A stretch of 64,000 nt of DNA from an uncultured Clostridia bacterium (GTDB taxonomy: Bacteria > Bacillota > Clostridia > TANB77 > CAG-508): assembly GCA_944387405.1 (NCBI GenBank), contig CALXET010000002.1, positions 129,316 to 193,315 of the forward strand. Reading direction: 5' to 3'. Under the pieces are notes generated by a model, which was not told the origin of the DNA, made no database searches, and worked only from the letters and a program-made list of their open reading frames with translations. Position 1 is the stretch's first letter; every line of letters begins with the position of its first letter. The translations under genes were made by a program, and so were the position numbers. Positions 397 to 46,689 of this stretch are shown piece after piece.

Positions 397-651
397 CTAG
401 CTAGGAAGCCCCTCAAAAACGTATGCCCCATCGGCATTTTTCCTAAGAGGACTTAGCTGGCTCGAGTGCGAATCTATAAGATATGCAAACATCTGCCCAT
501 CTCTTTGGAAAACCGCACTTCTTTCAGCATCTGCCTTAGTGAAGTTTACGATGTTAAACTGATACCCCCTACCAAGATATGAAAAGCCAAACGTTTTGAG
601 ATTCTCGATAGCCTTCCTAAGTTCTTGGTCTTCCCTATAAACCTTCATCAT
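397..651 (-). CDS. hypothetical 84-aa protein on higher-GC cassette A
   Basis: ORF with start ATGATG and RBS agaaagg; GC visibly higher than flanks; a TGTTATAAT -10 lies about 100 nt upstream (revcomp of ~735-745); hairpins cccctgcaaagggg and aagacttagagtctt lie just downstream (345-395). Confidence 0.5.
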   Translation of the reverse strand: MMKVYREDQELRKAIENLKTFGFSYLGRGYQFNIVNFTKADAERSAVFQRDGQMFAYLIDSHSSQLSPLRKNADGAYVFEGLPS

Positions 652-1618: not shown

Positions 1619-1822
1619 ATGTTGTATGCAGAGCAAAAAAAGGAAAAGACTTTTAGGTTTGCGTCTAGCAAGACGGCCTACTACGTCGCATTCGAGAAGC
1701 TGGCAACCTTTTGCCACTACTTCGAGTTCGATGTGCAAGGAAGCTGTGTAACTATACCTGCTGGATGCCCTGCCGGAGTTGTTAACACCATGATTCAATA
1801 TGGTGGAACACTTGTGGCATAA
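1619..1822 (+). CDS. hypothetical 67-aa Cys-containing small protein on higher-GC cassette B
   Basis: Strong SD aaggaggt 7 nt before ATG; TGTGGTATAAT extended -10 at ~1589-1599; GC-rich coding sequence; followed by a GC-rich terminator. Confidence 0.55.
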   Translation: MLYAEQKKEKTFRFASSKTAYYVAFEKLATFCHYFEFDVQGSCVTIPAGCPAGVVNTMIQYGGTLVA

Positions 1823-1880: not shown

Positions 1881-2237
1881 TTAAATTCTAAGATCAATCG
1901 AACCATTTCTGATAATACTAATCTCGTATGTTTTGCAAGGTTCCTTTACTTTTACGCTAACCATGGCATCAAAATCAAAAAAAGCAGACATGATTTCGAC
2001 TATAATCACATGTAATTCATCTAGGTCTCCTGCATCAATTGGTTTGATATTTTTTCTCACAAATTCAATCAAATCTCGAGCTTTTTCTTCTTCGATGTAT
2101 TCATTCGAATATAGGGTAAATGATCTCCCATCATCGAACTTGAAATGTCTTTGATACTTTTTTCCCTCTTCTTTTTCCTTCTTGTTAAAATGCCTCATTA
2201 AAAACCGGGTAAAAATCTTACTAAACATTTCTTTCAT
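1881..2237 (-). CDS. hypothetical protein (118 aa), distant paralog of the 2573-2956 product
   Basis: ORF with intermediate GC; shares an FxxDD...YI...E...DxxxDDELxxI pattern with the cassette C protein. Confidence 0.45.
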   Translation of the reverse strand: MKEMFSKIFTRFLMRHFNKKEKEEGKKYQRHFKFDDGRSFTLYSNEYIEEEKARDLIEFVRKNIKPIDAGDLDELHVIIVEIMSAFFDFDAMVSVKVKEPCKTYEISIIRNGSIDLRI

Positions 2238-2572: not shown

Positions 2573-2956
2573 TTACACCTTACTAAAGAATTTCTTTTTC
2601 ACTGTAATAGTGATTTTCCTTGTTCTCATTTTCACAGGTGCTGATGCCATGATCTCTTTCTCGTCTACGAGGCTCCCCATTTTGTCACCTGACAAAACAA
2701 CACTCGCAAACTTAAGATGCAAGGGCATCTCTTCGGTACAGGTCTTTGTGTAGACTCTTACCTTGTAGGTTTTTCGAAGAATGTCAAGCTCATCATCAAA
2801 CCGTCCATCAGTAAAAGCCTCAAGCAGCTTAACTGCAATGTCTTTTTCAAGCTGCCCTACCCAATCTTCCACTTCAAGCGAAATATACTGCGAATTATAT
2901 AAGTCATCCTTCCGGAACAACTCCGCAGAAAAAACGCTCATAGGTACACTGTTCAT
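2573..2956 (-). CDS. hypothetical 127-aa protein on higher-GC cassette C
   Basis: Higher-GC ORF; SD aaggaggg upstream; TGTGCTATAAT extended -10 on the minus strand at ~2985-2995. Confidence 0.5.
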   Translation of the reverse strand: MNSVPMSVFSAELFRKDDLYNSQYISLEVEDWVGQLEKDIAVKLLEAFTDGRFDDELDILRKTYKVRVYTKTCTEEMPLHLKFASVVLSGDKMGSLVDEKEIMASAPVKMRTRKITITVKKKFFSKV

Positions 2957-3025: not shown

Positions 3026-4669
3026 TTACTTACTTGCTCTTTTTAAAACAGATTCCTTGCCAAGTACTTTTAATATTTCATATAAATCAGGAGTATTTGC
3101 CCTACCTGTTATTTTTACTCTAATTACTGTACTTATATCTCCAACATGACCTTTGTATGCATCTGGATTTGCTTTATATTCTTTAACTTCCCTCGCATAT
3201 CCTAGCTCTTCTGATAAATCCTTCATCTTATTAAACCATGTTTGTTTGTCATCATTTTCATCATAATATTTATCAAAATAAGTAGTTACTATCTTCTTAA
3301 TCTCATCTTCGTCAGTTACCTTTTGATACTCATATTCTATGTTTGAAGTTAAAAATCTATCATCAAACATATATATAATTGAATCTTTAACATCAGACCA
3401 TTTAGCAATATCTTTTCTAGGTTTTACATTTCCTCTTTCAATTCCAAAAATTTTTAAAGCATATTCTTTATCTCTATTTAATAATTCATATAAATCTTTA
3501 TCATATGTACTTGCCCAATTTAAAACATCTTCTAAAACTTTTTCAGCTGAATAAGTAGAAATTACTGTTTTTGATACATCTAATAATTTTACCATATCAA
3601 ATAAAGCTCCACTTACTCCCATTTTCTTAATATCAAAATTAAAATCATCTACTGATTTATCTTTATTTCCTTTTTTCCAAGCCTCAAAATTAGAATTTGC
3701 AATATTCATTAAATATTCAATAACTGCTTCTTTTGGAATTCCTTCTTCTCTATAATAACTAACTGCAGCCTCTGGATCTTTTCTTTTACTTAGTTTTCTC
3801 TTATTTCCATCTTCTTCTTTCATTATAGGAGCAATATGTGCATATTTAGGCGCTTTAAATCCTAACATATAAAATAATTGTAAGTGAAGTGGTACTGAAG
3901 CTACCCATTCATCTGCTCTTATTACTAAATTAGTTCTCATTAAATGATCATCTACTGCATGAGCAAAATGATATGTTGGAAGTCCATCTGATTTAATAAT
4001 TACTATATCTTGATCATTTTCTGGAAACTCTATATTACCTTTTATTAAATCTTTATGCTTAATTTTCTTATCTGGATTTCCTGGTGATTTTAATCTTACT
4101 ATATAACTATCACCATTTTTTATTTTTTCTATAGCCATATCTACAGGCATATTTCTACATCTTGTCCATTTTCCATAATATCCTGTTCTTTGTCTTGCTT
4201 TTGTTTGATTTTCTCTTATTTCATTTAAATCTTCTGCAGAACAAAAACATGGATATGCTAGTCCTTTTTCAAGTAAACTTTTAGCATATGCTTGATATAT
4301 TTCTTTTCTTTTACTTTGAATATATGGTCCATAATTTCCATTATCTGTTCCATCTTCATTTAAAGATTCATCTGGTGATAAATCATATTCTTTTAAAGAA
4401 GTTAATATTTCAGATACACCATTTTCTATTTCTCTTTTTTGATCTGTATCTTCTATTCTTACAAAAAATACACCATCAGTTTGTTTTGCCATTTTTTTAG
4501 CAACTAAACTTTGATATAAACCTCCTATATGTACAAATCCTGTTGGGCTTGGTGCAAATCTAGTAACTATAGCACCTTCTTTTAAATTTCTTTCTGGATA
4601 TTTCTCTTCATAATAAGATACATCCTTTGCATCTGGAAATATTAAATCTGCTAATTCTTTATATCCCAT
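3026..4669 (-). CDS. gltX: glutamyl-tRNA synthetase (class I, with insertion domain)
   Basis: HIGH-type motif FAPSPTGFVHIGG, VRIEDTDQKR, KLSKR (KMSKS-type). Start MGYKELADLIF at 4669 with RBS agagaggtag; the ORF-track start at 4744 lacks an RBS. Confidence 0.8.
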   Translation of the reverse strand: MGYKELADLIFPDAKDVSYYEEKYPERNLKEGAIVTRFAPSPTGFVHIGGLYQSLVAKKMAKQTDGVFFVRIEDTDQKREIENGVSEILTSLKEYDLSPDESLNEDGTDNGNYGPYIQSKRKEIYQAYAKSLLEKGLAYPCFCSAEDLNEIRENQTKARQRTGYYGKWTRCRNMPVDMAIEKIKNGDSYIVRLKSPGNPDKKIKHKDLIKGNIEFPENDQDIVIIKSDGLPTYHFAHAVDDHLMRTNLVIRADEWVASVPLHLQLFYMLGFKAPKYAHIAPIMKEEDGNKRKLSKRKDPEAAVSYYREEGIPKEAVIEYLMNIANSNFEAWKKGNKDKSVDDFNFDIKKMGVSGALFDMVKLLDVSKTVISTYSAEKVLEDVLNWASTYDKDLYELLNRDKEYALKIFGIERGNVKPRKDIAKWSDVKDSIIYMFDDRFLTSNIEYEYQKVTDEDEIKKIVTTYFDKYYDENDDKQTWFNKMKDLSEELGYAREVKEYKANPDAYKGHVGDISTVIRVKITGRANTPDLYEILKVLGKESVLKRASK

Positions 4670-4771
4670 ATAATCTACCTCTCTATTCTTCTTTTTATTT
4701 ATAAAATTCAGCTCAATTATACCAAAGCTTCCTTTATTTTTCAATATTTATACGCAAAAGAAGATTAAGAA

Positions 4772-5446
4772 CTAGAAAATATTTTCTAGTTCTTTTAAAT
4801 CTTTTATAACTATATAATCTTTTGCATCTTCTGCTTGTTTTAAATCTCGCGTACCATCTATATCTAAAAGAATTGCTTTCATACCTACTCTATTTGCTCC
4901 AGATATATCTGTACGCTTGTCATCACCAATCATTATACATTCATCTTTGGTTGCTCCAATTTCTTTTAACAAATTATCAAAAGCTTCTTTAAAAGGTTTT
5001 GCACCAATTTCATCTGATCCAAATACTCTTATAAAATATTTATCTAAAGAAAGATTTTTTATTCTCTCTTTTTGTATTCTAGAGTAAAAGTTAGAGAAAA
5101 CATATAGGTTATAACCTTTATTTATTAAATATTCTAATGTCTCTTTTGTAACTAGAGCTTCTCTACAAAACTTGCTTCCTATAACTTCAATTATTTCTTC
5201 CATAAACTCTACCTGAAAATCAGTATCTAATTCTTTATTTACAAAGTCAGTCATATCTTTTAAGTTATAATATATATTTTCTCTTGTAAAATCACAATCA
5301 TAATTTCCAATAGACCTGTATATATCATTATAAAGACTTTCATCATAACCATATTTTTTTAAAACTTTTTTATATTCTAGTTTATCTTCTTCTTCATTTT
5401 TTACAATAGTATTATCTACATCAAATATTATATTTTTTATTTTCAT
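4772..5446 (-). CDS. HAD-superfamily hydrolase
   Basis: Motif I IIFDVDNTIV plus MIGDDKRTDISGA (motif IV-like). Confidence 0.7.
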   Translation of the reverse strand: MKIKNIIFDVDNTIVKNEEEDKLEYKKVLKKYGYDESLYNDIYRSIGNYDCDFTRENIYYNLKDMTDFVNKELDTDFQVEFMEEIIEVIGSKFCREALVTKETLEYLINKGYNLYVFSNFYSRIQKERIKNLSLDKYFIRVFGSDEIGAKPFKEAFDNLLKEIGATKDECIMIGDDKRTDISGANRVGMKAILLDIDGTRDLKQAEDAKDYIVIKDLKELENIF

Positions 5447-5488
5447 TTATTCCCCATTTTTTATTTTTGCTATTTTACTTTTATTTTT

Positions 5489-7381
5489 TTAGACTTCCAT
5501 AATAATTGGTAATATCATTGGATTTCTCTTTGTTTTAGCAAATATATAATCACGTAAACTATCTTTTAATTTTGCTTTTATAGTAGCCCAATCTCTTACA
5601 CCTGATTGTTCTAATTTCTCAATTTCATCTCTTAATACATGTTTTACTTCTTCCATTAGGTTTTCAGATTCTTTAACATAAACAAATCCTCTTGAAATAA
5701 CATCTGGACCTGCTAAAATCTCTCCTGTTGAAGAATCCATAGTAAGAACTACTATAATTAATCCATCTTGTGATAAATGTTGTCTGTCTCTTAAAACAAT
5801 ATTTCCAACATCTCCAACTCCAAGTCCATCAACCATAACTTTACCAAATGGCACTACTCCCGTAAGTTTTGCTTCTTCTTCATTAAGCTCTAAAATTCTA
5901 CCATTAGTCATTAAGAAAATATTTTCTGGTGGAATTCCTACTTTTTTAGCAGTCTCACTATGTGCAATTAATTGTCTATATTCTCCATGAACTGGTATAA
6001 AATATTTAGGTCTTATTAATGAAAGCATTAATTTTTGTTCTTCTTGACATGCGTGACCTGAAACATGTATAGCCTCTAAAGAACTATAAACAACTTCAGC
6101 ACCAATTTTCATTAAATCATCTATAACTTTAGCAACATATTTTTCATTACCTGGAATAGGATTTGCAGAAATAATTACCAAATCATTTGGTGTTATAGTA
6201 ACTTTTTTATGCTCTCCTGCTGCCATTCTAGTTAATGCAGACATTGTCTCTCCTTGGCTCCCAGTTGTAATTATAACTAATTGCTCATCTGGATAATTTT
6301 TAATCATATCAATATCAATAAACACATGGTCTGGGACATTTATATATCCAAGTTCCATAGCAGTATCTATCATATTTATCATACTTCTTCCACATACTGC
6401 AATTTTTCTATTATTTGCTACTGCTGAATTTACTATTTGTTGTACTCTATGAACATTTGAAGCAAATGTTGCAACTACTATCCTTTTTGTACAATTAAAG
6501 AATAATTTATCTAAAACCTCTCCTACAGAACTTTCAGACATAGTATATCCTTTTCTTTCAGAGTTTGTACTATCAGACATAAGTGCTAATACGCCTTTAT
6601 TACCAAGTTCAGCAAGTCTTCCAAAATCCATTTTTTCATCATCTATTGGTGTATAATCTATTTTAAAGTCACCTGTATGAACAACAGTACCTACCGGTGT
6701 GTGTATAGCTAAAGCGACAGCATCAGGAATACTATGACAACTCCTAATAAATTCTACTCTTATTTTTCCAAGTACTATTGTTTGTCCTTGATTTACTATT
6801 TTAAGTTTTGTACTTTTTAATAATTTATGTTCTTCTAATTTATGACTTATTAAACCTGCTGTAAGTTTTGTAGCATAAATTGGAACATTTATTTTACTTA
6901 ATAAATATGGAATAGCTCCTATATGATCTTCATGACCGTGAGTTATTACTAATCCTCTAATTTTTTCTCTATTTTTCTCTAGATAAGTAAAATCTGGTAT
7001 TACTAAATCAATACCAAGCATATCGTCTTCAGGAAATGCTAAACCACAGTCTACAAGTACTATATCATCGCCATATTCAAAAACAGTAATATTTTTACCG
7101 ATTTCTTGGATACCTCCTAAAGGTATTATTTTTAGCTTTTCTTGTTTAAATCTAAAATCTAATTTACCATCATTTTTCTTATTTTTTTGTCCTTTTTGAA
7201 TATTACGAGTATTTGTTGCATTAACATTTTTTCTAACACTTGATTTTTTTATTAATTTAGCATTTTCATTTACATTAGTATTTACATTATTTTTTTCTGA
7301 CTTTGTTACTTTTTCAGTTCTTTTTTTACTCTTCTTTTGAACTGGTTTTACATTATTTACTTTATTTTTATTTTCTTCCAT
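5489..7381 (-). CDS. rnj: ribonuclease J with Lys/Asn-rich N-terminal extension
   Basis: KIIPLGGIQEIGKNITVFEY, HGHEDHIGAIPYL metallo-beta-lactamase/beta-CASP motifs; ~95-aa low-complexity N-terminus. Confidence 0.85.
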   Translation of the reverse strand: MEENKNKVNNVKPVQKKSKKRTEKVTKSEKNNVNTNVNENAKLIKKSSVRKNVNATNTRNIQKGQKNKKNDGKLDFRFKQEKLKIIPLGGIQEIGKNITVFEYGDDIVLVDCGLAFPEDDMLGIDLVIPDFTYLEKNREKIRGLVITHGHEDHIGAIPYLLSKINVPIYATKLTAGLISHKLEEHKLLKSTKLKIVNQGQTIVLGKIRVEFIRSCHSIPDAVALAIHTPVGTVVHTGDFKIDYTPIDDEKMDFGRLAELGNKGVLALMSDSTNSERKGYTMSESSVGEVLDKLFFNCTKRIVVATFASNVHRVQQIVNSAVANNRKIAVCGRSMINMIDTAMELGYINVPDHVFIDIDMIKNYPDEQLVIITTGSQGETMSALTRMAAGEHKKVTITPNDLVIISANPIPGNEKYVAKVIDDLMKIGAEVVYSSLEAIHVSGHACQEEQKLMLSLIRPKYFIPVHGEYRQLIAHSETAKKVGIPPENIFLMTNGRILELNEEEAKLTGVVPFGKVMVDGLGVGDVGNIVLRDRQHLSQDGLIIVVLTMDSSTGEILAGPDVISRGFVYVKESENLMEEVKHVLRDEIEKLEQSGVRDWATIKAKLKDSLRDYIFAKTKRNPMILPIIMEV

Positions 7382-7893
7382 AAAATCTCCCTCTTTATAA
7401 TTGTTTTTTCTTATGTTTATTATAAAAACGCATAAAAAATTAGCTTAAAATAAAACATATTTCTCTTTTAATATATTTTACTTAAACTAATGATTCTAAA
7501 AATATTAAAATATTATTTTATTTCACAACAAATTAAAATTATATTTCAATAAAACAAATATAATATATTAATTTCCATTTTCAATTTTAAATCCGCTCAC
7601 ATACTTTTTATTAATATTATTCCGATCTCTTTTACTTATTATTATCTTATAAAAGATAATATTACATATTATTACGCACTACAAAAAAATTATTTAACTA
7701 CACACCTTTTAAATAATTTAATTAATAATATTTAATTTTTTCCGAACCATTAATTTAAATTTTTATAAAAACATCTCTTTTTTATACCACAAATCTCTAT
7801 ATATGTGGTAACAACTGTAAAATATTATACTATTTTTTATTTACTTTGTCAAATTATTAATCTTCAAAAACCTCATTTTACTTGTATATTACA

Positions 7894-8808
7894 TTATTTT
7901 TCAATATATCTTGCAACCATTATACTCTTGTCAAATCTATTTTCGAAACCAATTTTTAAATAAAAATCATTTACTAATTTCGTTAATAAAACTTTATTAA
8001 AAATTTCTTTTCCATTTGTATATGAAGCGTGCACTATATATCCATCGCCAAAATACATCATAATATGATTCATGTGTATATTTGGATTATGATTTTCATT
8101 TTCCTTATCTATAATTCCAATAATAAAATCTCCTATTTGCATTTTGCTTATATCTATTTTCTCACCAAATTTATCCACAAATTGCACAACTTTTATTTTC
8201 TTCTTAATTGCATCATCTTCTAAAAAAGCATTTGCATAATAATCTCTTGTTACCCAAATATTTGGTTTAAATAGTCCTTTTTTTACTTCTATCTTACTTA
8301 ATCCCTCTCTTACCATATTTTCTTTAAATACTCTGTTTAAAATAGTATTACAAAAAGCAGAACAATCATAAGAATAATATTCTTGAATATTATCATCTTC
8401 ATCTTTTTCATAATATGGAATATTAAAATAACCATTTAGTCTTGTCTTTCCAGATTCATAAAACTTATAATCCAATTTGGCTGAATAAGAATTATTTTGA
8501 TTTAAAATTCTTATAGCTTCATTTATCATTTTAATTTTTCCTTGTTTAGATACATCTTTTATTTTTTTATAATCATTATCTTTTTCATTTATATTCTCAA
8601 TTAATTTTATTTTTTCATCACTCAAACTAGATTTAATTACATATCCATATGATTCTTTATATTTAACTTTACAATAAATTTCATTCTCATCTTTATCTAT
8701 TATATTATTCTCTATTATTTCTACTTCATCATTTACATATAAAATATCAATTACCTCTGATTTTAAATTTACATTTTTTCTTAAAATTGCTTCTCTTACA
8801 ATAAACAA
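7894..8808 (-). CDS. SH3b-domain plus NlpC/P60-like cell-wall peptidase
   Basis: N-terminal SH3b-like region; YSYDCSAFCN (Cys motif) and HIMMYFGDGYIVHAS (His) of NlpC/P60. Confidence 0.55.
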   Translation of the reverse strand: MFIVREAILRKNVNLKSEVIDILYVNDEVEIIENNIIDKDENEIYCKVKYKESYGYVIKSSLSDEKIKLIENINEKDNDYKKIKDVSKQGKIKMINEAIRILNQNNSYSAKLDYKFYESGKTRLNGYFNIPYYEKDEDDNIQEYYSYDCSAFCNTILNRVFKENMVREGLSKIEVKKGLFKPNIWVTRDYYANAFLEDDAIKKKIKVVQFVDKFGEKIDISKMQIGDFIIGIIDKENENHNPNIHMNHIMMYFGDGYIVHASYTNGKEIFNKVLLTKLVNDFYLKIGFENRFDKSIMVARYIEK

Positions 8809-9012
8809 AAAACCACCTCATTATTTCAAAATTTATATTTTAATTTAACTTTTCTTACAACTTAAATATCTTATTAATTTTAATTATTATATCATAAATA
8901 TTATTATTAAAAATTGTAATTAGTATTTTATATTTTAAAGTTTATTTAATTGTTTTATGTAAACTATTGTGCTATAATAAATTAAGGCAACATAGAAAGG
9001 AGGTCACCAGTT

Positions 9013-9480
9013 TTGGATAGACCTGTTTATATACGGAAACTAACCACTGCTGATGCTAAAATTTACAAAAACATTTCTTATGGAGAATCTCTCCATAGAT
9101 ATGTTTCTTTTATGGAAGCAAAAAGCATATCAGAAGCAGAAAGGATCATATCCTTCAACACCTGCCTGTTTTCTACTATGTATGGAATCTTTCGAGCTAG
9201 TGATAACAAGCTAGTTGGAGCTTTAATTACCTCATGGTATGAACCAGACAGTGAGATCACGGTTCACTACTTCATAGGAGAATATTACAGAAGGAAACAC
9301 TATGCTTACGAGTCCCTAATTGTTCTCTCTCGGCTCGTAAAGCAGAAGTACCCCGAAGTAAAGACTCTCTTATTCGAAGTCAGAAAAACTAACAAGGCAA
9401 GTATCGCTCTGCAGAAAGCCTTAGGATCTGAACTTGTGAAGGAAAATGATAAAATTTACTTCTACTATTTATCCGTATAA
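9013..9480 (+). CDS. GNAT-family N-acetyltransferase on higher-GC cassette D (TTG start)
   Basis: Strong SD aaggaggt; TGTGCTATAAT extended -10 at ~8965-8975 with TTGTTT -35 17 nt upstream; GNAT-like C-terminal motif KASIALQKALGSELV; higher GC than flanks. Confidence 0.55.
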   Translation: MDRPVYIRKLTTADAKIYKNISYGESLHRYVSFMEAKSISEAERIISFNTCLFSTMYGIFRASDNKLVGALITSWYEPDSEITVHYFIGEYYRRKHYAYESLIVLSRLVKQKYPEVKTLLFEVRKTNKASIALQKALGSELVKENDKIYFYYLSV

Positions 9481-9482
9481 GC

Positions 9483-9528
9483 CTAGCCCAAGGTTCCCCT
9501 AAAAAGGAGCCCGGGCTTTTCTTTTGTC
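9483..9528 (+). terminator. putative terminator of cassette D
   Basis: GC-rich palindromic segment agcccaagg...gagcccgggc followed by ttttcttttg. Confidence 0.4.
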
Positions 9529-9667
9529 TAATTATTAATATTTTTGTCTTACTATTTTTCTTGAATTTTATATTTTATCATTTTATACTTTTATCATAAC
9601 AATTTTGAATTTATAATTTTATTATTGCTTCTTTCTTGTTTAAAAATACAATAAAAGGAGTGATATT

Positions 9668-9982
9668 ATGAATTTTGATAATATTTTAGATAGTTTTAAT
9701 ATTGATGATTTTTCAAATGATTTACACAATTTCTTAAATAATATTACTGAAGAGGAACCTGTTTTATATACTTTAGATAGAGTTGAAGGAAATTTTGGTG
9801 TACTAGAAAATAGAGATACTGGAAAAATGTCAGATGTTCCTATTGAAAAATTACCAGAAGATCTAAAAGATGGTGATATTTTTAGATATTTTAATGGTGT
9901 TTTCGAAAAAGATATAGAAGCTTATAGTAAAACTAAAGAAAGAATAGATAGTTTAAGAGAAAATTTAAAAACAAATACTTAA
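9668..9982 (+). CDS. DUF3006-family small protein (native composition)
   Basis: YTLDRVEGNFGVLENRDTGKMSDVPIEKLPEDLKDGDIF pattern; RBS aaaaggag. Confidence 0.5.
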   Translation: MNFDNILDSFNIDDFSNDLHNFLNNITEEEPVLYTLDRVEGNFGVLENRDTGKMSDVPIEKLPEDLKDGDIFRYFNGVFEKDIEAYSKTKERIDSLRENLKTNT

Positions 9983-10060
9983 AATAGCAAAATTTGAATT
10001 TTTATGTTAACTGTGGTATTATTAATATATATACCCTATTTAGGAAGGAGGTATCAAGAA

Positions 10061-10828
10061 ATGGCAGGACACAAATTGTACCTTAAGTATGTACAACCTG
10101 TTGTTTCTGGCATTGATGGGGTATTCTCCCTTCTTGAGGGAATTGATGTCCTTAAGTGCTTTGTCCCTGATCTTCGGGAGCACTATAATGACTGCCCAAT
10201 AACATCTTTGCCAACCGTCACAGAAGAGGATCTTAAAAAACTGCTCAAGCCTAACAGCTTTGAGTATGTTCTAAAGACCTCAAAGGTGTTGGAAATCGAG
10301 TCGCCTAAGCTGGTGATTTCTGTATACACGATCTTCGAAATCGGAGGTTACGTTGCAGTAATCAAGTCTGGACGCAAGGTAAGCGCGAAAGTGCTGGGGT
10401 ACTACAACACCAGGGAGTTCAAGTCTGGTACCCACGCACTCTTCGATTTGCTGAAGAAACGTCACATGATTTCAGCTGAGTGCGAAGAGATCCAACCCGA
10501 TCGTCTGGACGTTCTCGATTTTGACGAGCTTGCAGATTGGCTATCTGGCTTCTTGGAGCCGGGTGTCACTCTCACGGTCAAGCACCGGCTCCCAACTTAC
10601 GAAGAGCTCGATGGAAAGCATACCACTTGGTATAACGATGGGAGTGCGCTTTCTCCTATCTACATCGAGATCGTAAACGTGAGTTGTGAGTGCTTCGTCA
10701 TATACGCCATGGTAAACTACGAAAACAAAGACGAGTACAGCTCCCTGGCTAAGAGCCATGGGTTCCAAGCTTACGAATCTGCGTTCTGTGATTCCGGCGT
10801 ATTTGAGGAACTGTTCTACACGGACTAG
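10061..10828 (+). CDS. hypothetical 255-aa protein on strongly higher-GC (~50%) cassette E
   Basis: SD aggaaggaggt before ATG 10061 (MAGHKLYLKY...). The ORF-track start at 10004 is upstream of the RBS. No recognisable motifs. Followed by a GC-rich terminator. Confidence 0.6.
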   Translation: MAGHKLYLKYVQPVVSGIDGVFSLLEGIDVLKCFVPDLREHYNDCPITSLPTVTEEDLKKLLKPNSFEYVLKTSKVLEIESPKLVISVYTIFEIGGYVAVIKSGRKVSAKVLGYYNTREFKSGTHALFDLLKKRHMISAECEEIQPDRLDVLDFDELADWLSGFLEPGVTLTVKHRLPTYEELDGKHTTWYNDGSALSPIYIEIVNVSCECFVIYAMVNYENKDEYSSLAKSHGFQAYESAFCDSGVFEELFYTD

Positions 10829-10846
10829 CCCTGTGACAGGAAAGGT

Positions 10847-10888
10847 GCCCGCATGCTAAACACATGCGGGCGCCTTCTTTTATTTTTT
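10847..10888 (+). terminator. intrinsic terminator of cassette E
   Basis: 9-bp stem gcccgcatg/catgcgggc, loop ctaaaca, then gccttcttttatttttt. Confidence 0.75.
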
Positions 10889-11043
10889 ATATATTTTTGA
10901 TGTTTTTTATATATTTTTTATACTTATATTTATTTTTTATGATTTTTATTTATACTTATTTTTGCTTTCATTTTTAATTTTATTTATTTTTATTTAATTC
11001 TTTTGTTTTAATTTTTTCATATTTTATTTGTTTTCTATTTTAA

Positions 11044-11598
11044 TTAAACATTATAAAAATATGTAGCTTCTAAATCAGCTTCATGCATTAACAATGCAAG
11101 TGGATATTTTTTATATGCTAAAGAAATTGTGCCATATAATTCTTTTGGCTCTGTAAATCCCATATGCCATCTTATACAATATTTCTCTTCACTTGTTAAT
11201 TTCATATATTCTGTAATCATCATAACAGATTTTTCTCCATGTCCATATGGAATTGTATCATCTACTGTATAATAAGGAACTTTTTCCCATTCTCCTCTTT
11301 CATTTTTAGCATTTCTAAAATCAACTTTATAATAATTTGCTTTACAAATATCATGTAAAAGAGCAACTATAATTAAAGTATCATCGCCTACATTAATATC
11401 GATTACCGAATTTTTAACTTTATATTTTAATATTTCATAAACTTTCATGCTATGCTCTAACAAACCACCTTCATAATTTCCATGAAACCTTGTACTTGCT
11501 GGAGCTTTAAAAAAGTCTGTCTTCTCTAAAAAATTAATTATTTCTTCTATTCCATCTCTTTTTGTACTTTTTAATAATTCTATAAATTCTTCTTTCAT
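11044..11598 (-). CDS. HD-domain phosphohydrolase
   Basis: HD motif VALLHDICK ... HMGFTEP. Confidence 0.65.
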   Translation of the reverse strand: MKEEFIELLKSTKRDGIEEIINFLEKTDFFKAPASTRFHGNYEGGLLEHSMKVYEILKYKVKNSVIDINVGDDTLIIVALLHDICKANYYKVDFRNAKNERGEWEKVPYYTVDDTIPYGHGEKSVMMITEYMKLTSEEKYCIRWHMGFTEPKELYGTISLAYKKYPLALLMHEADLEATYFYNV

Positions 11599-11782
11599 AT
11601 TATATCCTCCAATAACTTTTACTTTTATTTTCTTTTGTAGCGCTTTTCTTTTACTCTAACTTAATTTAATATTATTTTATATTTCTCTATCTCTCTATTT
11701 CTAATAGTAAAAATATTATAACAAAAACTAATTTTTATAACAAGAAAAAAAGAGAAAAAGTGTGATTTCTCACACCTTTTCC

Positions 11783-12748
11783 TCAATTAGATTCTCTTAG
11801 CTGCCTTCCACTTAAATAATCGCCATTTTCTTTGTCAAATACTATTTCGCCATCATCTTTTACTGTTATTACAATATCTCCTAATTCATCAGTCCGGTAT
11901 AATGGAATATTTTTATCCTCAAAGCGCTTTGTAACAGCACCATATGGATGATTATAATCATTTCCGTTTCCACAACTTACGACTGCATATTTAGGATTCA
12001 CCATATCTAGAAACTCATCAGTTGTTGATGTTTTACTACCATGATGCCCTATCTTTAAGATGTCTGAAGATAAATTAGCACCGCTTTCTAATAGCTCTTT
12101 TTCCACCTCAGATTCTGCATCTGCCATAAAAAGCATTGAAAAGTCGCCATAAACAAGCTTAAAAACTATTGACTTGTTATTAACATTTACTGCATCATTG
12201 TTCTGACTCAAGGTATAAACTTTAGCATCTCCAACATCAAAATTTTTTAGCTTATTATTCTCACACGCAGATTCCATGAAAATTGACATGCTTCCAAAAG
12301 TCTCTCTTATACTACGAGAAATTGACATATCAATATACCAAAATCGTTCTTGCATTGTAGATAAATCACTAAACTTATGACACACTATTTTTTTCACATC
12401 AAGCGAACTTATTATCTTGTGTGCTCCTCCAGCATGGTCTCTATGAAAATGAGTAATCAAAAATATGTCAATTTTATCAATTCCTAAACTCTTAATATAT
12501 TTTACTACATCATCTCCAGTAAAGTTATCTCCTGAATCGACTAACATAGTAAATCCATCTTGAACTATAAGAATTGATTCTGCTTGACCTACATCGATTA
12601 TGTGAATCTGAAGCTCATCTTCACTATTGTATTGTGTAACAGTAATAGTATTATACGAAATACTTGTATATCTATTGACAATAACAGAAAAAATAACAAG
12701 TATTATAATGAAAGTAAGAATCTTTTTCCGTTTTTTAGATTCTCTCAA
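11783..12748 (-). CDS. MBL-fold metallo-hydrolase (ComEC C-terminal-domain-like), membrane-anchored
   Basis: N-terminal TM; HIIDVGQAESILIV ... ITHFHRDHAGG (HxHxDH) motif. Confidence 0.7.
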   Translation of the reverse strand: MRESKKRKKILTFIIILVIFSVIVNRYTSISYNTITVTQYNSEDELQIHIIDVGQAESILIVQDGFTMLVDSGDNFTGDDVVKYIKSLGIDKIDIFLITHFHRDHAGGAHKIISSLDVKKIVCHKFSDLSTMQERFWYIDMSISRSIRETFGSMSIFMESACENNKLKNFDVGDAKVYTLSQNNDAVNVNNKSIVFKLVYGDFSMLFMADAESEVEKELLESGANLSSDILKIGHHGSKTSTTDEFLDMVNPKYAVVSCGNGNDYNHPYGAVTKRFEDKNIPLYRTDELGDIVITVKDDGEIVFDKENGDYLSGRQLRESN

Positions 12749-12872
12749 CAGAAAATCCTCCCTTCTAAAAAAGCAAAAAAACTTGTGCCTAATAATATTT
12801 TAACATCTTAGGTCAAGTCTTTTTTATTTCTATACTATTTTATTACTCTATTTTAAATATTTTCTTAAAAAA

Positions 12873-13730
12873 TTATATAAGTATAACCATACTACTAAAA
12901 TACTTTTCTTGAAAATTAACAATATCTAAAACTTCGTCTTCTGTATATTTTTTATTATTATTAATATCTACGACAATCAATTTATCATCTTCATCATTTA
13001 TTCTTTGTATAATTCCTATACATTTTCCTTTAAATGTCTCTAACGGGATTTTAGAGTCAATTATGAATACATCTAGTTCTTTTCCATCACCACTTTTTGT
13101 ATTTGGAATATACCCATAATTTATTGGATATATCATATCTGGATATTTTGGATGTGAATCTCCCATTTTTCTGTCTATAATTATATTTACTTCTTTTCCT
13201 AAAAAATCATAAGACATTCTTTGTTTAGTATTTATTATCTCATCATACATTGTAACTATATAATAAAATATATCTCTGATTTCACTATATTCTAACATTC
13301 TTTCAAATTCTTCTTTAGTAACATATTTTGCATCTTGTACTTCTCCATCTGAAAAAACTAAATCTGATAAATTAATATCTTTTCTTACTACCCATTTATC
13401 TACAATCGCATGATGTGTTTTATCTACTTTATTACCAAAATATATTAAATCTTTTAAATTTAACTCCAGTCCAATTTCTTCTTTTATTTCTCTTAGAGCT
13501 CCTTCGTATGTTGTTTCACCTTTTAAGACAGATCCTGCAGTACATTCCCATTTTAAAGGATTAGATTTTTTATTTTTTGATCTTTGCGTAAGTAAAATTT
13601 CACCTTTACTATTTATAATCCATATTTCTTCTACAATATGATATTCATTTTCTTTAAATACAGATACATCTCTTATTAAATCGTATCCTAATTTCTTTCT
13701 ATTTTCATTATATGCATCCCAATATTCCAT
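12873..13730 (-). CDS. Nudix hydrolase fused to family-I inorganic pyrophosphatase
   Basis: Nudix box GETTYEGALREIKEEIGLEL in the N-terminal half; C-terminal half NYGYIPNTKSGDGKELDVFIIDSKIPLETFKGKCIGIIQRINDEDDKLIVVD aligns with PPase NYGFIPQT..DGDPLDVLVL...DDKIIAV. Confidence 0.65.
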   Translation of the reverse strand: MEYWDAYNENRKKLGYDLIRDVSVFKENEYHIVEEIWIINSKGEILLTQRSKNKKSNPLKWECTAGSVLKGETTYEGALREIKEEIGLELNLKDLIYFGNKVDKTHHAIVDKWVVRKDINLSDLVFSDGEVQDAKYVTKEEFERMLEYSEIRDIFYYIVTMYDEIINTKQRMSYDFLGKEVNIIIDRKMGDSHPKYPDMIYPINYGYIPNTKSGDGKELDVFIIDSKIPLETFKGKCIGIIQRINDEDDKLIVVDINNNKKYTEDEVLDIVNFQEKYFSSMVILI

Positions 13731-13818
13731 AAAAACTCCTTAAATAAAAATCGTTTTTATTATACATTAAAGAGTAAAAAATAAAAAGTCTAAAACATAA
13801 TGTTCTAGACTTTTTATT

Positions 13819-14982
13819 TTAACCGAAAATTCCTCTTTTTTTAATTGGTGGTTGTTCATTCATTGTAAGTGCAAGTTTAGTAATAAGTTCTCTTTGCTCT
13901 TGAGTTAATCTCTTTGGAACTTGAACTACAACAGTAAATACAAAGTCACCACTCCAGTTCTTATTATTTACAGATTTAAATCCTTTATTTTTTATAACAA
14001 ATTTTGTTCCAGTCTGTGTTCCTGCTGGAATAGTATATTTTTGTTTTGTACCATCTACCATTGGAACTTCTATTTCTGTTCCTAAAGTTGCTCCTGTAAA
14101 TGTAATTGGTATATCACATAAAACATGATCTGCTTTTCTTGTATAAATGTCATGTTTTTTAACATGAATATTTATATATAAATCACCTTTTGGTCCACCT
14201 TTTTCTCCAGGCTCGCCTTCTCCTCTTAGTACTATAGTCTGACCATCATTAATACCTGCTGGAATTTTAACTTTTATTTTACTTGTTTGTCTTGTATATC
14301 CTTTTCCTTTACAGTTTGGACATGGGTCATCTATTATTTTTCCTTCACCACCACAATTTGAACAAATCTTTTGAGTTGCCATTTGTCCAAATGGAGTTGT
14401 AACTACTTGTCTTATTTGTCCAGTACCTTTACATACACTACAAACATGAGCTTCACTTCCATCTCTAGTACCATTTCCATGGCATTTTGGACATTCTCTA
14501 TTTCTATTTACACTTATAGTCTTTTCTGTTCCAAGATAAGATTCTTCAAATGTAATTTCTATATTAGCTTTCATATCAGTACCTTTTCTAGGACCATTAC
14601 GTCTTCTAGATCTAGTACCTCCACCAAAAGCTGCAGAAAATATATCACTAAAACTTCCAAATCCAAAGTCATCGAATCCGAATCCTTCAAATCCTGATCC
14701 ACCAAATCCAGAACCTCCATATGAATAATGTCCTCCTTGACCTCCACCAAATTGTGGCCCGTCTGGATTTCCAAAATTATCATAATTACTTCTTTTTTGT
14801 TTATCAGATAATACTTCATATGCTTCGCTAACTTCTTTAAATTTAGCTTCTGCTTCTGCTTTATTATCCGGATTAGCATCAGGGTGATATTTTTTTGCAA
14901 GTTTTCTATATGCTCTTTTAATTTCATCATCAGAAGCACTTTTTGTTACTCCTAATATTCCATAATAATCTTTATTTGCCAT
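13819..14982 (-). CDS. dnaJ: chaperone DnaJ
   Basis: J domain DYYGILGV...HPD; Gly-rich region; four CxxCxGxG zinc-finger repeats. Confidence 0.9.
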
Positions 14983-15002
14983 CTTGTACTCCTCCATGAT
15001 AA

Positions 15003-15368
15003 TTAAACATATTTCTTTTTATTGTCTTCAACATAATTTCTTTTTAAATTACCATTATATTTTTTCATATATACTTCTGTAAATTCTTCTGCTGATATAT
15101 TTGTTCTATTTAAAACATCTATATAATACATTAGAACATCACCAAATTCTTCAATAAATCGTTCTCTTATATTTTTGTCGTTCATTATAGAATCTATTCC
15201 TTTTTTCTTAATAATAGAAATTGTCTCTCCTAATTCTTCTACCATATATAAAATATTATTTTTAGCATATTCTGGCTCCATAGGCTCCCAATTATTTTTA
15301 TTAAGTTCCCATAATTTATATTGCATATCTTTTAATTCTGATATTTTTAAATCTTTTTTATTTTCCAT
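15003..15368 (-). CDS. MazG-like nucleotide pyrophosphohydrolase (small all-alpha NTP-PPase)
   Basis: EELGE and EEFGDVLMY motifs typical of the MazG/YpjD family; lies between dnaK and dnaJ. Confidence 0.55.
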
Positions 15369-15396
15369 ATAAGAAAACTCCTTACTAAAAATTATG

Positions 15397-15421
15397 GGCA
15401 GCAATTATTCCATAGCTGCCC
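15397..15421 (-). terminator. hairpin terminator after dnaK
   Basis: Stem gggcagc/gctgccc with 12-nt loop, T-rich after it on the minus strand. Confidence 0.45.
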
Positions 15422-15453
15422 TTATCTTTTATTCTTTTTTATACTAAATAAGA

Positions 15454-17340
<1,887 letters not shown>

Positions 17341-22559: not shown

Positions 22560-22765
22560 TTTAATATAAAAACATGCCCCACATTAGCCGTTAATGTAAA
22601 GAATTTTTAATGGACCTGTACTCACACAGGTGGGTGCCCTCCTGAATACTCCTGGGTTTCTTATATAAATATAAGCATACACGCCATACTCAGAGACCGA
22701 AGCTCCCTTCTCCAAACTTGTAGGTTCTAAAAACTCTGTCCTCACGCACCATGCAGGGATTGATA
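22560..22765 (-). ncRNA. candidate structured small RNA (about 200 nt; 6S-like size; identity unresolved)
   Basis: Only GC-richer non-coding stretch in a 515-nt ORF-free gap. Several stems form with G-U pairs only when read on the minus strand: long-range CCCUGCAUG...CAUGUGGGG closing helix about 185 nt apart, hairpin CCUGU-GUGAGU-ACAGG, C(UUCG)G tetraloop. A possible -10 (gataat) lies upstream and a terminator downstream. Confidence 0.4.
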
Positions 22766-31556: not shown

Positions 31557-31747
31557 AATATACCTTCTTATTAATAAATTAGATAAATTATACTACGATT
31601 TCTCTTATTCTTCAATAATTTATTGTGTTTTTATGTAAACTGTGTTATAATTTTGTTTGTCCTGTATGACAGCTATTATATTTCTAAATGAGCAAGACCG
31701 ACTTAGAAGTACAATAGTTTATTAACTTTTAGAAAGGGGATGTTTTT

Positions 31748-33160
31748 ATGCAGTACAGAGACATTTTGCAGCAGGAGATCGATAAACGGTTAACCGAAGC
31801 TGCAGCATTTTCACTTTGCCCACTTGATGGGCGCTATGTAGCAATCGCCAAAGCGCTTGCTCCGTATCTTTCCGATTGGGCACTTCAGTACCATCGGGTA
31901 AACGTAGAAGTCGAGTGGTTCATTGCAATGACCGAACTGGTTGAATCATCTGATTTTCTTATGGATTTTGATCCTAATATGACGATGATTATTCGCAGTA
32001 TTGCAGAAGAGTTTACCATCGATGACTACTACGAAATCAAAGACATCGAAAAGGTAACAAACCACGATGTCAAGGCGGTGGAAGTATTTCTGCAAAGAAG
32101 GTTCAAGGTCATCGGTCTTGAGAAGTTTGTAAGCTTTATTCACTTTGGATGTACATCCGAAGACATTAACAATTTGGCTTACGGGCTCATGATTAAGTCG
32201 GCTTTGAATGATGTCATTATTCCGAAAATGGCTGAACTTGCTGATAAGATCAATGACTTTTCAACATCATTTGCAAGAGTCCCGATGCTCGCGCATACAC
32301 ACGGACAAAAAGCCTCTCCGACAACAGTTGGAAAAGAATTTGCTGTATACCGTGAGCGCCTCTACTCAGTAATCGATGATTTATCATATATTCCTATTAC
32401 TGGAAAATTTAACGGCGCAACCGGAAATCATTCAGCTGTTTCAGTGGCTTTCCCTTGCGAAGATTGGCCGGCAATTGCAGAGCAGTTCGTAACAGATTAT
32501 ATGGGGCTTGAATTCAAGCTGGTTACTACACAGATTGAACCTCATGATTATATCTGTGAGATTTGTGATGCTATCCGTCACTACAACAACATTCTCATCG
32601 ACTTTGATCTGGATATGTGGCTTTATATCAGTATGGACTACTTAAAACAGATCCCGGTTAAGGGTGAAGTTGGTAGTTCTACTATGCCGCATAAGGTAAA
32701 TCCGATTAAGTTCGAAAACTCGGAAGCATCTGTGTGGTTCTCAAATGCGCTGCTGATTGCATTGTCTGAAAAGCTTCCGCGCTCTCGTATGCAGAGAGAT
32801 CTCTCTGACTCTGCTACACAGAGAAATATCGGAATCGCTTTTGGATATGCACTGCAGGCAATAAATCAGACCATATCCGGGCTCGAAAAAATCGATGTCA
32901 ATACAGATGTAATCTCTGAAGATCTCGATAGTAGCTGGGAAGTCCTTGCAGAACCGATTCAGACCGTTATGCGCAAATACGGTATTTCCGATGCCTATGA
33001 TAGGCTTAAACAGCTTACTCGTGGCAAAGAGATTACTCGTGAAGACATTCAGGAATTTATCAAGACTCTTGATTTTATTTCCGAAGACGATCGAGAAGAT
33101 CTCTTGAAGTTGAAACCGTCAGATTATACGGGCTACGCTGTAGAAATTACAGAAAATTAA
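31748..33160 (+). CDS. purB: adenylosuccinate lyase, E. coli-type (class II) PurB, on higher-GC (~46%) cassette G
   Basis: LCPLDGRY, TNHDVKAVE, HFGCTSEDINN, GSSTMPHKVNP signature, about 456-aa type. TGTGTTATAAT extended -10 at ~31641; SD agaaagggga. Confidence 0.85.
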   Translation: MQYRDILQQEIDKRLTEAAAFSLCPLDGRYVAIAKALAPYLSDWALQYHRVNVEVEWFIAMTELVESSDFLMDFDPNMTMIIRSIAEEFTIDDYYEIKDIEKVTNHDVKAVEVFLQRRFKVIGLEKFVSFIHFGCTSEDINNLAYGLMIKSALNDVIIPKMAELADKINDFSTSFARVPMLAHTHGQKASPTTVGKEFAVYRERLYSVIDDLSYIPITGKFNGATGNHSAVSVAFPCEDWPAIAEQFVTDYMGLEFKLVTTQIEPHDYICEICDAIRHYNNILIDFDLDMWLYISMDYLKQIPVKGEVGSSTMPHKVNPIKFENSEASVWFSNALLIALSEKLPRSRMQRDLSDSATQRNIGIAFGYALQAINQTISGLEKIDVNTDVISEDLDSSWEVLAEPIQTVMRKYGISDAYDRLKQLTRGKEITREDIQEFIKTLDFISEDDREDLLKLKPSDYTGYAVEITEN

Positions 33161-36437: not shown

Positions 36438-36782
36438 TCATTTAGCAATTTTCAAAGATGCTGCATGCGGTAATAAACCGAGCTTAGCAAAGAACAATGA
36501 CAGCTCAACATATGTGTAATCCTGATGACCTTTAATGGCCAAAATCTTCACATATCCATCACTTTCATTTACAAGTTCATGACTCTCTCCTTTTGGACAG
36601 ATATAGACATTTTTCTTGTCGAGCCATATCCATACCTCCCATTGGTCGTTATGATCATGCATTGTAATTGTTGTGTACGGTGCTACGCTCAGATATTGAA
36701 TCTCGTCAATCTCTGTCAAGACTATCTTCCGCACTTCATCGCCTTTGATAAATTTTTCTGGGAGCTTTACTTCTGGTATCAT
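36438..36782 (-). CDS. cupin-domain small protein on higher-GC cassette H
   Basis: HDHNDQWEVWIWL...ICPKGESHEL cupin-like His motifs; SD taggagga; TATAAT on minus strand at ~36815; higher GC than flanks. Confidence 0.55.
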   Translation of the reverse strand: MIPEVKLPEKFIKGDEVRKIVLTEIDEIQYLSVAPYTTITMHDHNDQWEVWIWLDKKNVYICPKGESHELVNESDGYVKILAIKGHQDYTYVELSLFFAKLGLLPHAASLKIAK

Positions 36783-37103
36783 ATGCTTCCTCCTATAAAT
36801 ATATCAAATCCTCATTGTTACGCAACTATTATACTATACTTTACATAAAAAAGCAATGTATTAGTATTTTATATTCATCTATATTTTACATTATATTTAA
36901 TTCTATAACACAAATTTTTAATATATCTTATTTGCAATGTAATAATTAATATCTTTATATAAAATGCATTTTGTGTAAAAATATGGTATAATATAAATAT
37001 ATATTATAATAAACAAAATAATTAAATATGGAGCGAAATTTAACACTAAAAGAATTTATAATTTTAATAACTGAGTCTCACATAAGATAAGGAGGATTTT
37101 AAT

Positions 37104-46563: not shown

Positions 46564-46627
46564 TTTTGAAAAACAATAAAAAAAGATGAAAAAGGTTATC
46601 TTTTTCATCTAAAGTGGTGACCCCTAC
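46564..46627. repeat. 64-bp direct repeat, copy B (overlaps the tRNA-Glu 3' end)
   Basis: See copy A. Confidence 0.85.
46574..46609 (-). terminator. intrinsic terminator after tRNA-Glu
   Basis: Stem gatgaaaaag/ctttttcatc with loop gttatc (minus-sense GAUGAAAAAG-AUAACC-UUUUUCAUC) followed by UUUUUUUAUUG. Confidence 0.65.
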
Positions 46628-46689
46628 GGGAATCGAACCCATGATTCCACCTTGAGAGGGTGGCGTCTTAACCGCTTGACCAAGGGGCC
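46615..46689 (-). tRNA. tRNA-Glu (anticodon CUC)
   Basis: Minus-sense GGCCCCUUGGUCAAGCGGUUAAGACGCCACCCUCUCAAGGUGGAAUCAUGGGUUCGAUUCCCGUAGGGGUCACCA: 7-bp acceptor stem, D loop, anticodon loop CUCUCAA, T-loop GGUUCGAUUCC, encoded CCA; near-identical to Bacillus tRNA-Glu. Confidence 0.85.

Follow-up and report, generated by a model that had tools for sequence, protein, structure and literature searches.

Several mRNAs of Gram-positive bacteria are stabilised by a 5′ stem-loop or a STAB-SD element (a stabilising Shine-Dalgarno sequence) together with a 3′ "retroregulator" hairpin, as in cry of Bacillus thuringiensis and aprE of Bacillus subtilis. GC-rich stretches in AT-rich genomes are a classic signature for finding structured RNAs (PMC6429828). 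For protein-coding genes, an unusual GC content is routinely taken to indicate recent horizontal gene transfer (HGT). The orphan gene described here contradicts that reading. It is located near position 10,000 of a 64-kb stretch (64,000 nucleotides of contig CALXET010000002.1, hereafter the window) from an uncultured Clostridia bacterium. What makes it unusual is that a foreign-looking composition has stayed at a fixed site through a divergence that randomised the synonymous sites of its neighbours. Literature searches gave no described equivalent of such a long-term, gene-confined composition combined with excess mRNA structure. The best explanation, to which we assign a probability of roughly 55%, is that the orphan is a vertically inherited coding gene whose GC-rich composition is maintained by selection on mRNA structure.

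The region at 10004–10888, proposed in a preliminary description of the window, corresponded to one complete expression unit. The longest open reading frame (ORF) spanned 10004–10828 on the forward strand (274 aa), and position 10004 was merely the start of this longest frame. The true coding sequence (CDS) was 10061–10828 (+), which begins with ATG at 10061 and encodes the 255-aa protein already proposed (MAGHKLYLKY...FEELFYTD). An ATGGCA start was found 8 nt 3′ of a GGAGG-type Shine-Dalgarno sequence (SD) in every orthologue. This shared spacing, together with a promoter and non-coding DNA 5′ of 10061, indicated that 10061 is the biological start. A consensus scan placed a sigma-70-type promoter (TTGAAT-17-TATTAT with a TG extension) at 9994–10022 (+), in which the -35 element TTGAAT occupied 9994–9999 (+) and the extended -10 element, TGG-TATTAT, 10014–10022 (+). 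A conserved block, TTTTATGTTAAC, was situated inside the 17-nt spacer at 10000–10011 (+). The transcription start predicted from the sequence would leave a short 5′ untranslated region (UTR) at 10030–10060 (+), and the SD, described earlier as strong, was the consensus GGAAGGAGGT at 10043–10052 (+). A 5′-proximal hairpin was predicted in this UTR, with AUACCCU pairing with the SD. When seven putative orthologue UTRs were folded, an SD-pairing, pyrimidine-rich hairpin arm appeared in five or six (that of L011 was weak; relatives are cited by such locus labels where they must be told apart), and the hairpin energies were weak, from -0.5 to -5.4 kcal/mol. The GC-rich terminator noted previously was recovered at 10842–10888 (+). 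It was an intrinsic terminator with a hairpin at 10842–10876 (14-bp stem with nine G-C pairs, 7-nt loop), followed by the T-run CTTTTATTTT. The orthologues had a hairpin at the equivalent place, and their stems differed in sequence yet were self-complementary (GGTGCCCGCATGC in the window, GGCACTCGCATGC in L001). Judged by its own promoter, SD and terminator, the orphan is a self-contained monocistronic expression unit.

The GC content of the orphan CDS was 47.3%, with 53, 32 and 56% at the first, second and third codon positions (GC1, GC2 and GC3), compared with 26.9% for the window; the earlier figure of about 50% was slightly generous yet fair. The orphan had been called the most compositionally deviant ORF of the window. 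Indeed, its GC3 was the highest among ~65 ORFs, native genes showing 6–21%, and the ten GC-richest 300-nt segments of the 64 kb (50–52% GC) all fell within its CDS. Only 80 bp separated it from the DUF3006 gene, which had a GC3 of 6%. Its codon usage deviated similarly: TTA was used for none of the 28 Leu codons (66% in native genes) and AGA for none of the six Arg codons (87% in native genes), while CTC, CTG, ACC, TCC, CGN, TAC and ATC, near-absent from native genes, were used. The avoidance of TTA and AGA was seen in most lineages, and least in L010 and L011. Across eight lineages the GC3 of the orphan was 56, 54, 44, 39, 45, 43, 46 and 28%, and among the relatives it was 6–18% in DUF3006, 9–15% in HD and NUDIX, and 35–46% in the GNAT gene. 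Adenine-specific mutagenesis, like that of diversity-generating retroelements, was considered as a cause of the composition and ruled out, as the AT skew was ~0, with no selective loss of A compared with T.

Two exhaustive searches of libraries of 5.8 and 1.8 billion proteins, plus one profile search that added just two clade members (P0013 and P0014), yielded ~14 homologues in total, with identities from 98% down to 30%. The full-length homologues were 250–266 aa long and had a common start; P0004, P0007 and P0008 looked truncated or mis-called. All placeable homologues were on contigs of 28–31% GC, and the sole complete-genome match was OZ006973.1 ("uncultured Clostridia bacterium", circular, 1.8 Mb). 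The family occurs only in a single clade of uncultured, gut-type Clostridia that have small genomes of ~27% GC. A tblastn search of 50,697 phage records and 72,556 plasmid records found no relative of the orphan.

The neighbours of the orphan were RNase J, NlpC/P60, HD, metallo-beta-lactamase-fold (MBL) and NUDIX genes and the dnaK operon. In all placed relatives except L010, down to 30% identity, the orphan was found between the NlpC/P60 (left) and HD genes, and the right flank was conserved as HD, MBL, NUDIX-inorganic pyrophosphatase (NUDIX-PPase), DnaJ, MazG, DnaK, GrpE and HrcA. In a test for a genomic island, neither patchy presence nor variable location was observed, L010 being the sole exception, and no mobility genes or recombination sites were found near the orphan (attC-like sites were not formally modelled). 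The identity to the window protein across the relatives was 84, 61, 38, 31 and 31% for the orphan, 92, 92, 86, 86 and 86% for HD, and 91, 88, 76, 71 and 62% for NUDIX. The divergence of the orphan followed the order of the flanking genes but was faster, and the rate of evolution of its protein was four- to fivefold that of its neighbours. In the comparison of the window with L001, its synonymous divergence (dS) was 0.42, compared with mostly 0.18–0.78 in the neighbours (1.45 in MBL), and its ratio of nonsynonymous to synonymous divergence (dN/dS) was 0.21. Synteny, congruent divergence, neighbour-like dS and this dN/dS together indicated vertical inheritance and coding function: the orphan is a real, vertically inherited, fast-evolving coding gene under purifying selection, and not a recent insertion. 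The term "cassette" used in the preliminary description was thus apt for a self-contained, foreign-looking unit, one of eight similar ones in the window. A mobile or recently acquired element was contradicted by the synteny, the dS, the equilibrium composition described below and the lack of relatives in the phage and plasmid records.

In L010 (1852–3110) the orphan was at a different site, adjoining ftsY, and had the lowest GC3 of the family (28%). It was followed there by a further GC-rich gene, which encodes 100 aa on the other strand and had a GC3 of 48% and a folding z of -3.9. The right flank in the window (11044–17313, -) contained a nucleotide "house-cleaning" run of HD phosphohydrolase, MBL-fold protein, NUDIX-inorganic pyrophosphatase fusion and MazG, whose gene separates dnaK from dnaJ within the hrcA-grpE-dnaK-dnaJ heat-shock operon.

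An unlikely explanation for the composition is an ancient, horizontally acquired cassette whose GC content is a slowly decaying relic and whose RNA structure is incidental and inherited from the donor. It would agree with the sharp compositional borders, the separate promoter and terminator, and the lower GC3 in some lineages (44, 39 and 28%), as partial amelioration would give. It would also agree with the presence of an E. coli-type adenylosuccinate lyase (PurB) among the GC-rich genes of the window (432 bits to 7t24 vs 74 to the B. subtilis type). However, the native synonymous sites were near-randomised over the same time. The correlation of strong (G or C) and weak (A or T) states at native synonymous third positions between the window and its relatives was 0.30 for L001, 0.16 for L004 and 0.15 for L016. 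A two-state model limits the compositional memory that each lineage can retain from the deepest split to sqrt(0.15), ~0.39, which sets the neutral ceiling on the present GC3 at ~0.09 + 0.91 × 0.39 = 0.44, even from an ancestor with 100% GC3. The GC3 of 0.56 in the window exceeded this ceiling; a relic needs an ancestral GC3 from 0.94 (window–L001 ancestor) to above 1 (1.3). Changes polarised among the three closest sequences, with L001 as outgroup, were balanced (10 strong-to-weak vs 12 weak-to-strong); at third positions alone they numbered 8 and 7, where a decay from GC3 0.55 to 0.10 predicts ~11:1. No donor-like homologue was present in the protein collections, phage or plasmid records searched, and the over-folding of the mRNA exceeded what each orthologue's own codon usage would give. 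The orphan sits at its own compositional equilibrium, and neutral amelioration at native rates cannot explain its GC3. This means that selection or another gene-confined force is required.

The mRNA of the orphan was predicted to fold far more strongly than expected. The minimum free energy (MFE) of the transcript 10030–10840 was -280.7 kcal/mol, compared with -234.9 ± 6.1 kcal/mol for dinucleotide shuffles (z -7.5). With shuffles of synonymous codons, which keep both the protein and the codon usage, the z-scores of eight orthologues were -6.2, -5.1, -3.3, -2.0, -4.4, -5.3, -2.4 and -1.6. When the shuffles were confined to 40-codon blocks, the scores were still -5.3, -4.5 and -3.5, which excludes regional composition as the cause. 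The sense strand was more negative than the antisense strand each time (-5.8/-4.5, -4.7/-3.4, -4.0/-0.6 and -5.3/-3.7), which is the expectation for an RNA with G-U pairs. By comparison, nineteen native genes had a mean z of -0.36 (range +1.5 to -2.9). Two AT-rich native genes were outliers at about -2.8 to -2.9, a HAD hydrolase gene at 4772–5446 (-) and the NUDIX-PPase gene of L016 at 14685–15542 (-).

Covariation was scored on seven orthologues (98–61% protein identity) against a structure predicted from the window sequence alone. The predicted pairs were kept in 87.5% of cells, compared with 36–41% when partners were slid. Changes on both sides were found in 41 pairs, compared with 21.0 ± 3.3 in column shuffles (none of 500 reached 41) and 10–21 in slid controls. 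RNAalifold identified 39 compensated pairs, six of them within one long-range helix that joins 228–253 with 412–436. Synonymous constraint was uneven along the coding sequence. In a codon-identity scan of six sequences down to 61% amino acid identity, 36% of codons at conserved residues were identical gene-wide; the value was 64–77% in codons 11–30 (10091–10150, +), 70–80% in codons 96–110 and ~0–20% elsewhere. A near-invariant multi-helix 5′ domain comprised CDS nt 1–152, where helices 1–7 were 81–100% paired, six of them at least 92%. Two further invariant blocks, CDS nt 305–325 and 387–413 (within 10365–10473, +), were mutually complementary and 80 nt apart. Helices 15 and 16 between them were 98.6 and 100% paired, and the variable hairpin they enclosed changed on both sides at pairs 326:385 and 353:365.

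Such a fold raises the question of whether the transcript is primarily a large structured or dual-function RNA, its structure having a function beyond protein expression. A z of -5 to -7 is exceptional for an mRNA, the 5′ domain of ~150 nt is near-invariant, the long-range invariant blocks are complementary, and GC-rich stretches in AT-rich genomes are a known discovery signature (PMC6429828). Nevertheless, we regard this as rather improbable. The reading frame, the start and the length of 250–266 aa were kept down to 30% identity, the dN/dS was 0.21, and the protein model was confident. The Rfam 15 scan gave no match to the orphan, and a relaxed scan of 8900–10950 gave only sub-threshold noise at the terminator. 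Moreover, two enzyme genes of the GC-rich class, GNAT and PurB, had the same property, so a general mRNA property fits better than a specific RNA machine. Elsewhere in the window, only a 6S RNA at 22572–22762 (-; 77 bits) and one tRNA at 46618–46689 (-) reached the gathering score of Rfam.

The preliminary description had assigned no domain to the protein, and this was upheld. No family was found in Pfam, NCBIfam or PADLOC at E ≤ 1, PHROGs gave just noise (E 0.17), and the PDB contained no match by sequence or by profile. Nine family members scanned one by one against the family libraries shared no weak match. An AlphaFold2 model built from an alignment of nine sequences had a predicted local distance difference test score (pLDDT) of 84 and a predicted template modelling score (pTM) of 0.84. 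It comprised nine strands and about ten helices, and neither a signal peptide nor a membrane segment was predicted. The structural check proposed earlier, AlphaFold followed by Foldseek, gave no match in the PDB or BFVD. The clear homology to a well-characterised housekeeping family that would have spoken against a novel function was looked for and not found.

Among the weak Foldseek leads, the CYTH/triphosphate tunnel metalloenzymes recurred most often, accounting for eight of the first 44 PDB hits (best E 8.5e-3, probability 0.51). The nucleotide-hydrolase neighbours (HD, NUDIX-PPase and MazG) are a further point of likeness. However, the TM-scores were just 0.19–0.28 (0.19/0.26 for the match with the best E), similarity by sequence or profile was absent, and the orphan had no N-terminal ExExK; its first strand was HKLYLKYVQP, in line with the family consensus H-P-x-Y-L-x-Y-V-K-P. 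An internal duplication of an alpha-alpha-beta4-alpha module, hinted at by the secondary structure, was rejected when hhalign of the two halves gave a probability of 0.5%. Only four polar residues, S74, Y97, D153 and E182, were invariant in the family. Together with the fast evolution, this leans to a binding or structural role rather than conserved catalysis, as far as sequence comparison can tell. The orphan is a new and very narrow protein family with a confidently predicted fold; on their own, such families are common.

The genes next to the orphan were as previously described. The GNAT gene formed a sister unit at 8950–9520 (+; CDS 9013–9480; Acetyltransf_3, E 2.9e-9; GC3 38%) with an SD and a GC-rich terminator, and its promoter contained TTTTATGTAAAC at 8953–8964 and TGCTATAAT. 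The folding z of its mRNA was -2.4 in the window, -3.4, -5.2 and -5.2 in three orthologues and just -1.0 in L052. Between it and the orphan was the DUF3006 gene at 9668–9982 (+; Pfam E 1.5e-16; GC3 6%), a conserved neighbour of native composition outside the orphan unit. GNAT and DUF3006 were directly upstream of the orphan in most placed relatives, and DUF3006 preceded it in the window/L018/L009, L001, L004, L011/L012 and L052 lineages. L016 retained the orphan with neither gene, and L010 had it elsewhere.

It has little probability that the orphan and these neighbours form a conflict system (a GNAT toxin and partner, immunity, or anti-phage defence) and that the composition reflects this lifestyle. 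The protein is indeed small, cytoplasmic, clade-restricted and fast-evolving, with few invariant polar residues, and it adjoins GNAT in most lineages. Yet PADLOC found none of the three genes above noise. The GNAT protein matched Acetyltransf_3 and RimI/RimJ-like enzymes, including PDB chains, and not toxin GNATs. No ribbon-helix-helix (RHH)/DUF1778 antitoxin adjoined it, its neighbour being DUF3006, and on this sequence evidence the locus did not appear to be a GNAT toxin-antitoxin system of the TacT/AtaT type. Each gene had a separate promoter and terminator, the position was fixed with no island-like variability, and the orphan persisted without GNAT and DUF3006 in L016 and elsewhere in L010. 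The earlier suggestion of a link to GNATs or toxin-immunity pairs therefore came down to position. Local GC-biased gene conversion at a recombination hotspot (for example under diversifying selection), with biased repair raising GC, would suit a gene that evolves faster than any of its neighbours (31% identity, compared with 86% for HD) and the joint rise of GC1, GC2 and GC3, as from a nucleotide-level force, but is very improbable, because the effect ended exactly at the CDS/terminator borders, skipped the 315-bp DUF3006 between two GC-rich genes in every lineage and went with congruent divergence and equal dS, and because sense-biased over-folding and compensatory pairs are not predicted by it.

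The orphan was not the only gene of this kind. GC3 in the window was bimodal, and eight genes at 31–56% were each found singly among native genes. Besides the orphan and GNAT, these were the genes at 397–651 (-), 1619–1822 (+), 1881–2237 (-) and 2573–2956 (-), a 114-aa gene at 36438–36782 (-), all five with GC3 within 31–46%, and PurB at 31748–33160 (+; GC3 42%), which had a ~100-nt leader from about 31652. All had a strong SD and most a GC-rich terminator, and most had no Pfam match; no paralogy was found among the GC-rich proteins of the window. The genes within 397–2956 and GNAT were GC-rich at equivalent positions in L001, as was one of them in L016. The folding z-scores of the class in the window were -6.2, -3.9 (PurB), -3.2, -2.4, -2.3, -1.1, -1.1 and -0.4, and they were on average lower than those of native genes (Mann-Whitney p 0.003 for the window; 5e-6 for all values, which are not independent). 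PurB, probably an ancient xenologue that has stayed within the GC-rich class, was of the E. coli/Legionella type with an ASL_C domain. The convergent genes 1619–1822 (+) and 1881–2237 (-) had in common one GC-rich hairpin at 1826–1870 (GGCGACGCCCCACACTAAGGGCGCCGCC), which resembles a terminator acting in both directions.

Four of the eight units, namely GNAT, the orphan, PurB and the 114-aa gene, had TTTTATGTAAAC directly 5′ of the -10 element, which was TG-extended in three. These promoter blocks were at 8953–8978, 10000–10022, 31629–31651 and 36828–36850 (minus strand). The four top hits of a position weight matrix in the 64 kb were these four promoters, from which the matrix had been built. 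None of the native extended -10 promoters in the window had TTTTATGTAAAC. Upstream of the orphan, TTTTATGTAAAC with TGnTATnAT was present in every orthologue, including those of 30% identity, and was better conserved than the protein. This common block suggests co-regulation of some of the GC-rich genes, and it may be an operator for a regulator. That the block is exclusive to GC-rich genes was ruled out by a metagenome scan of the exact 23-mer.

Some metagenome loci with the block had no evident gene behind it. In L033 (3511–3640) the 23-nt promoter was followed by an ~80-nt AT-rich stretch and a hairpin with T-run (aaagcaaggaattttaattccttgctttt) without any ORF, which makes it a candidate small RNA of a related bacterium from the human gut. 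Stretches identical to it were observed in L021, L031, L041–L043, L046 and L048, on human-gut contigs of up to 767 kb. In L029 (4803–5080) the promoter preceded ~250 nt at 40–45% GC on a 31%-GC contig, with no obvious ORF and near a terminator; this stretch is a candidate structured leader or non-coding RNA.

Here, we propose how selection on mRNA structure would maintain the composition of the orphan. Transcription of the gene alone would begin at its extended -10 promoter of the sigma-A type and end at the strong intrinsic terminator, and the consensus SD would direct translation of a cytoplasmic alpha/beta protein of 255 aa. Its mRNA would form base pairs far beyond what the protein sequence and codon usage require. 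G and C would be retained because they build these pairs, and selection at the transcript level would hold GC at its own equilibrium against the genome bias. The structured message would most likely be stable, RNase-resistant or translation-tuned. Its putative design elements are the 5′-proximal hairpin involving the SD (weak), the strong SD, the structured body and the strong 3′ hairpin. The class members that share the promoter block may be co-regulated.

Several points weigh against selection on mRNA structure as the explanation. In native AT-rich genes, parsimony polarisation gave a spurious or unexplained excess of weak-to-strong changes; for the native genes at 4061–16825 compared with L018 and L001, 88 weak-to-strong and 21 strong-to-weak changes were counted at third positions. 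Part of this excess must be mis-polarisation at fast-mutating G/C sites. Since the counts are biased in this way, the argument for an equilibrium rests on the autocorrelation bound, and the substitution balance of the orphan is used for consistency only. In L011, L016 and L017 (30% identity), the pairs of the window structure were retained no better than identity predicts; what is conserved at that distance is over-folding as a property, and not demonstrably one architecture. The z of the L052 orthologue was just -1.6, and near-zero scores were found for two class members (o118 at -0.4 and -0.1). The details of an MFE structure predicted for 770 nt are not reliable. The covariation test, with seven sequences from one clade, had limited power, and column shuffles ignore phylogeny. 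A foreign origin of at least part of the class, contributing to its composition, is likely, as indicated by the E. coli-type PurB. Finally, the exact 23-mer was found at 31 metagenome loci (about 15 distinct), of which 4–6 had GC-rich downstream sequence, and many preceded AT-rich genes or short non-coding stretches. These varied downstream sequences pointed to a widespread, constrained promoter or operator type and not to a private mark of the class.

A broader and more tentative possibility, which we consider somewhat doubtful, is that the clade maintains a dedicated gene class comprising the orphan, GNAT, the E. coli-type PurB and small orphans, with GC-rich, structured transcripts and partly one promoter/operator block. 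Such a "nucleotide-composition regulon" would consist of RNase-resistant, long-lived or dual-function mRNAs, which might be expressed, for example, while bulk AU-rich mRNA is degraded or transcription shuts down. Within this class the orphan would stand at the extreme, and its RNA fold might have a function of its own. If this behaviour of the class were true genome-wide, it would be a clean case from nature in which selection on the structure of whole transcripts sets the base composition of single genes in a bacterium. Compositional detectors of HGT would then have to be read with caution, and design rules for stable mRNAs of AT-rich Firmicutes might be derived from the class.

Compared with known systems, the orphan resembled each of them in part. 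Like lineage-specific orphans (ORFans) and the DUF-type families of Pfam, it was a one-clade family under purifying selection with a confident predicted fold and no homologue elsewhere. However, it was in neither Pfam nor NCBIfam, and unlike ordinary orphans it had a genome-alien codon usage kept through deep divergence and a highly structured mRNA. With the atypical-GC genes of HGT, which undergo amelioration as described by Lawrence and Ochman, it shared GC and GC3 far above the genome, sharp borders and a foreign-type PurB in its class; in contrast to them, it was syntenic, vertical across the clade and at equilibrium composition, with no donor or mobile-element relatives. It was similar to the GC-rich structured non-coding RNAs of AT-rich bacteria (from GC-rich intergenic regions, GC-IGR; for example OLE and ROOL) as a conserved, strongly folding transcript in AT-rich Clostridia, but it encoded a conserved protein, had no Rfam match and shared its property with enzyme genes. 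With the stabilised mRNAs of the cry and aprE type it had in common a very strong SD near the 5′ end, a possible 5′-proximal hairpin and a very stable terminator hairpin. It differed from these in that its stability is a prediction from the sequence and that its whole coding body, too, was GC-enriched and over-folded.

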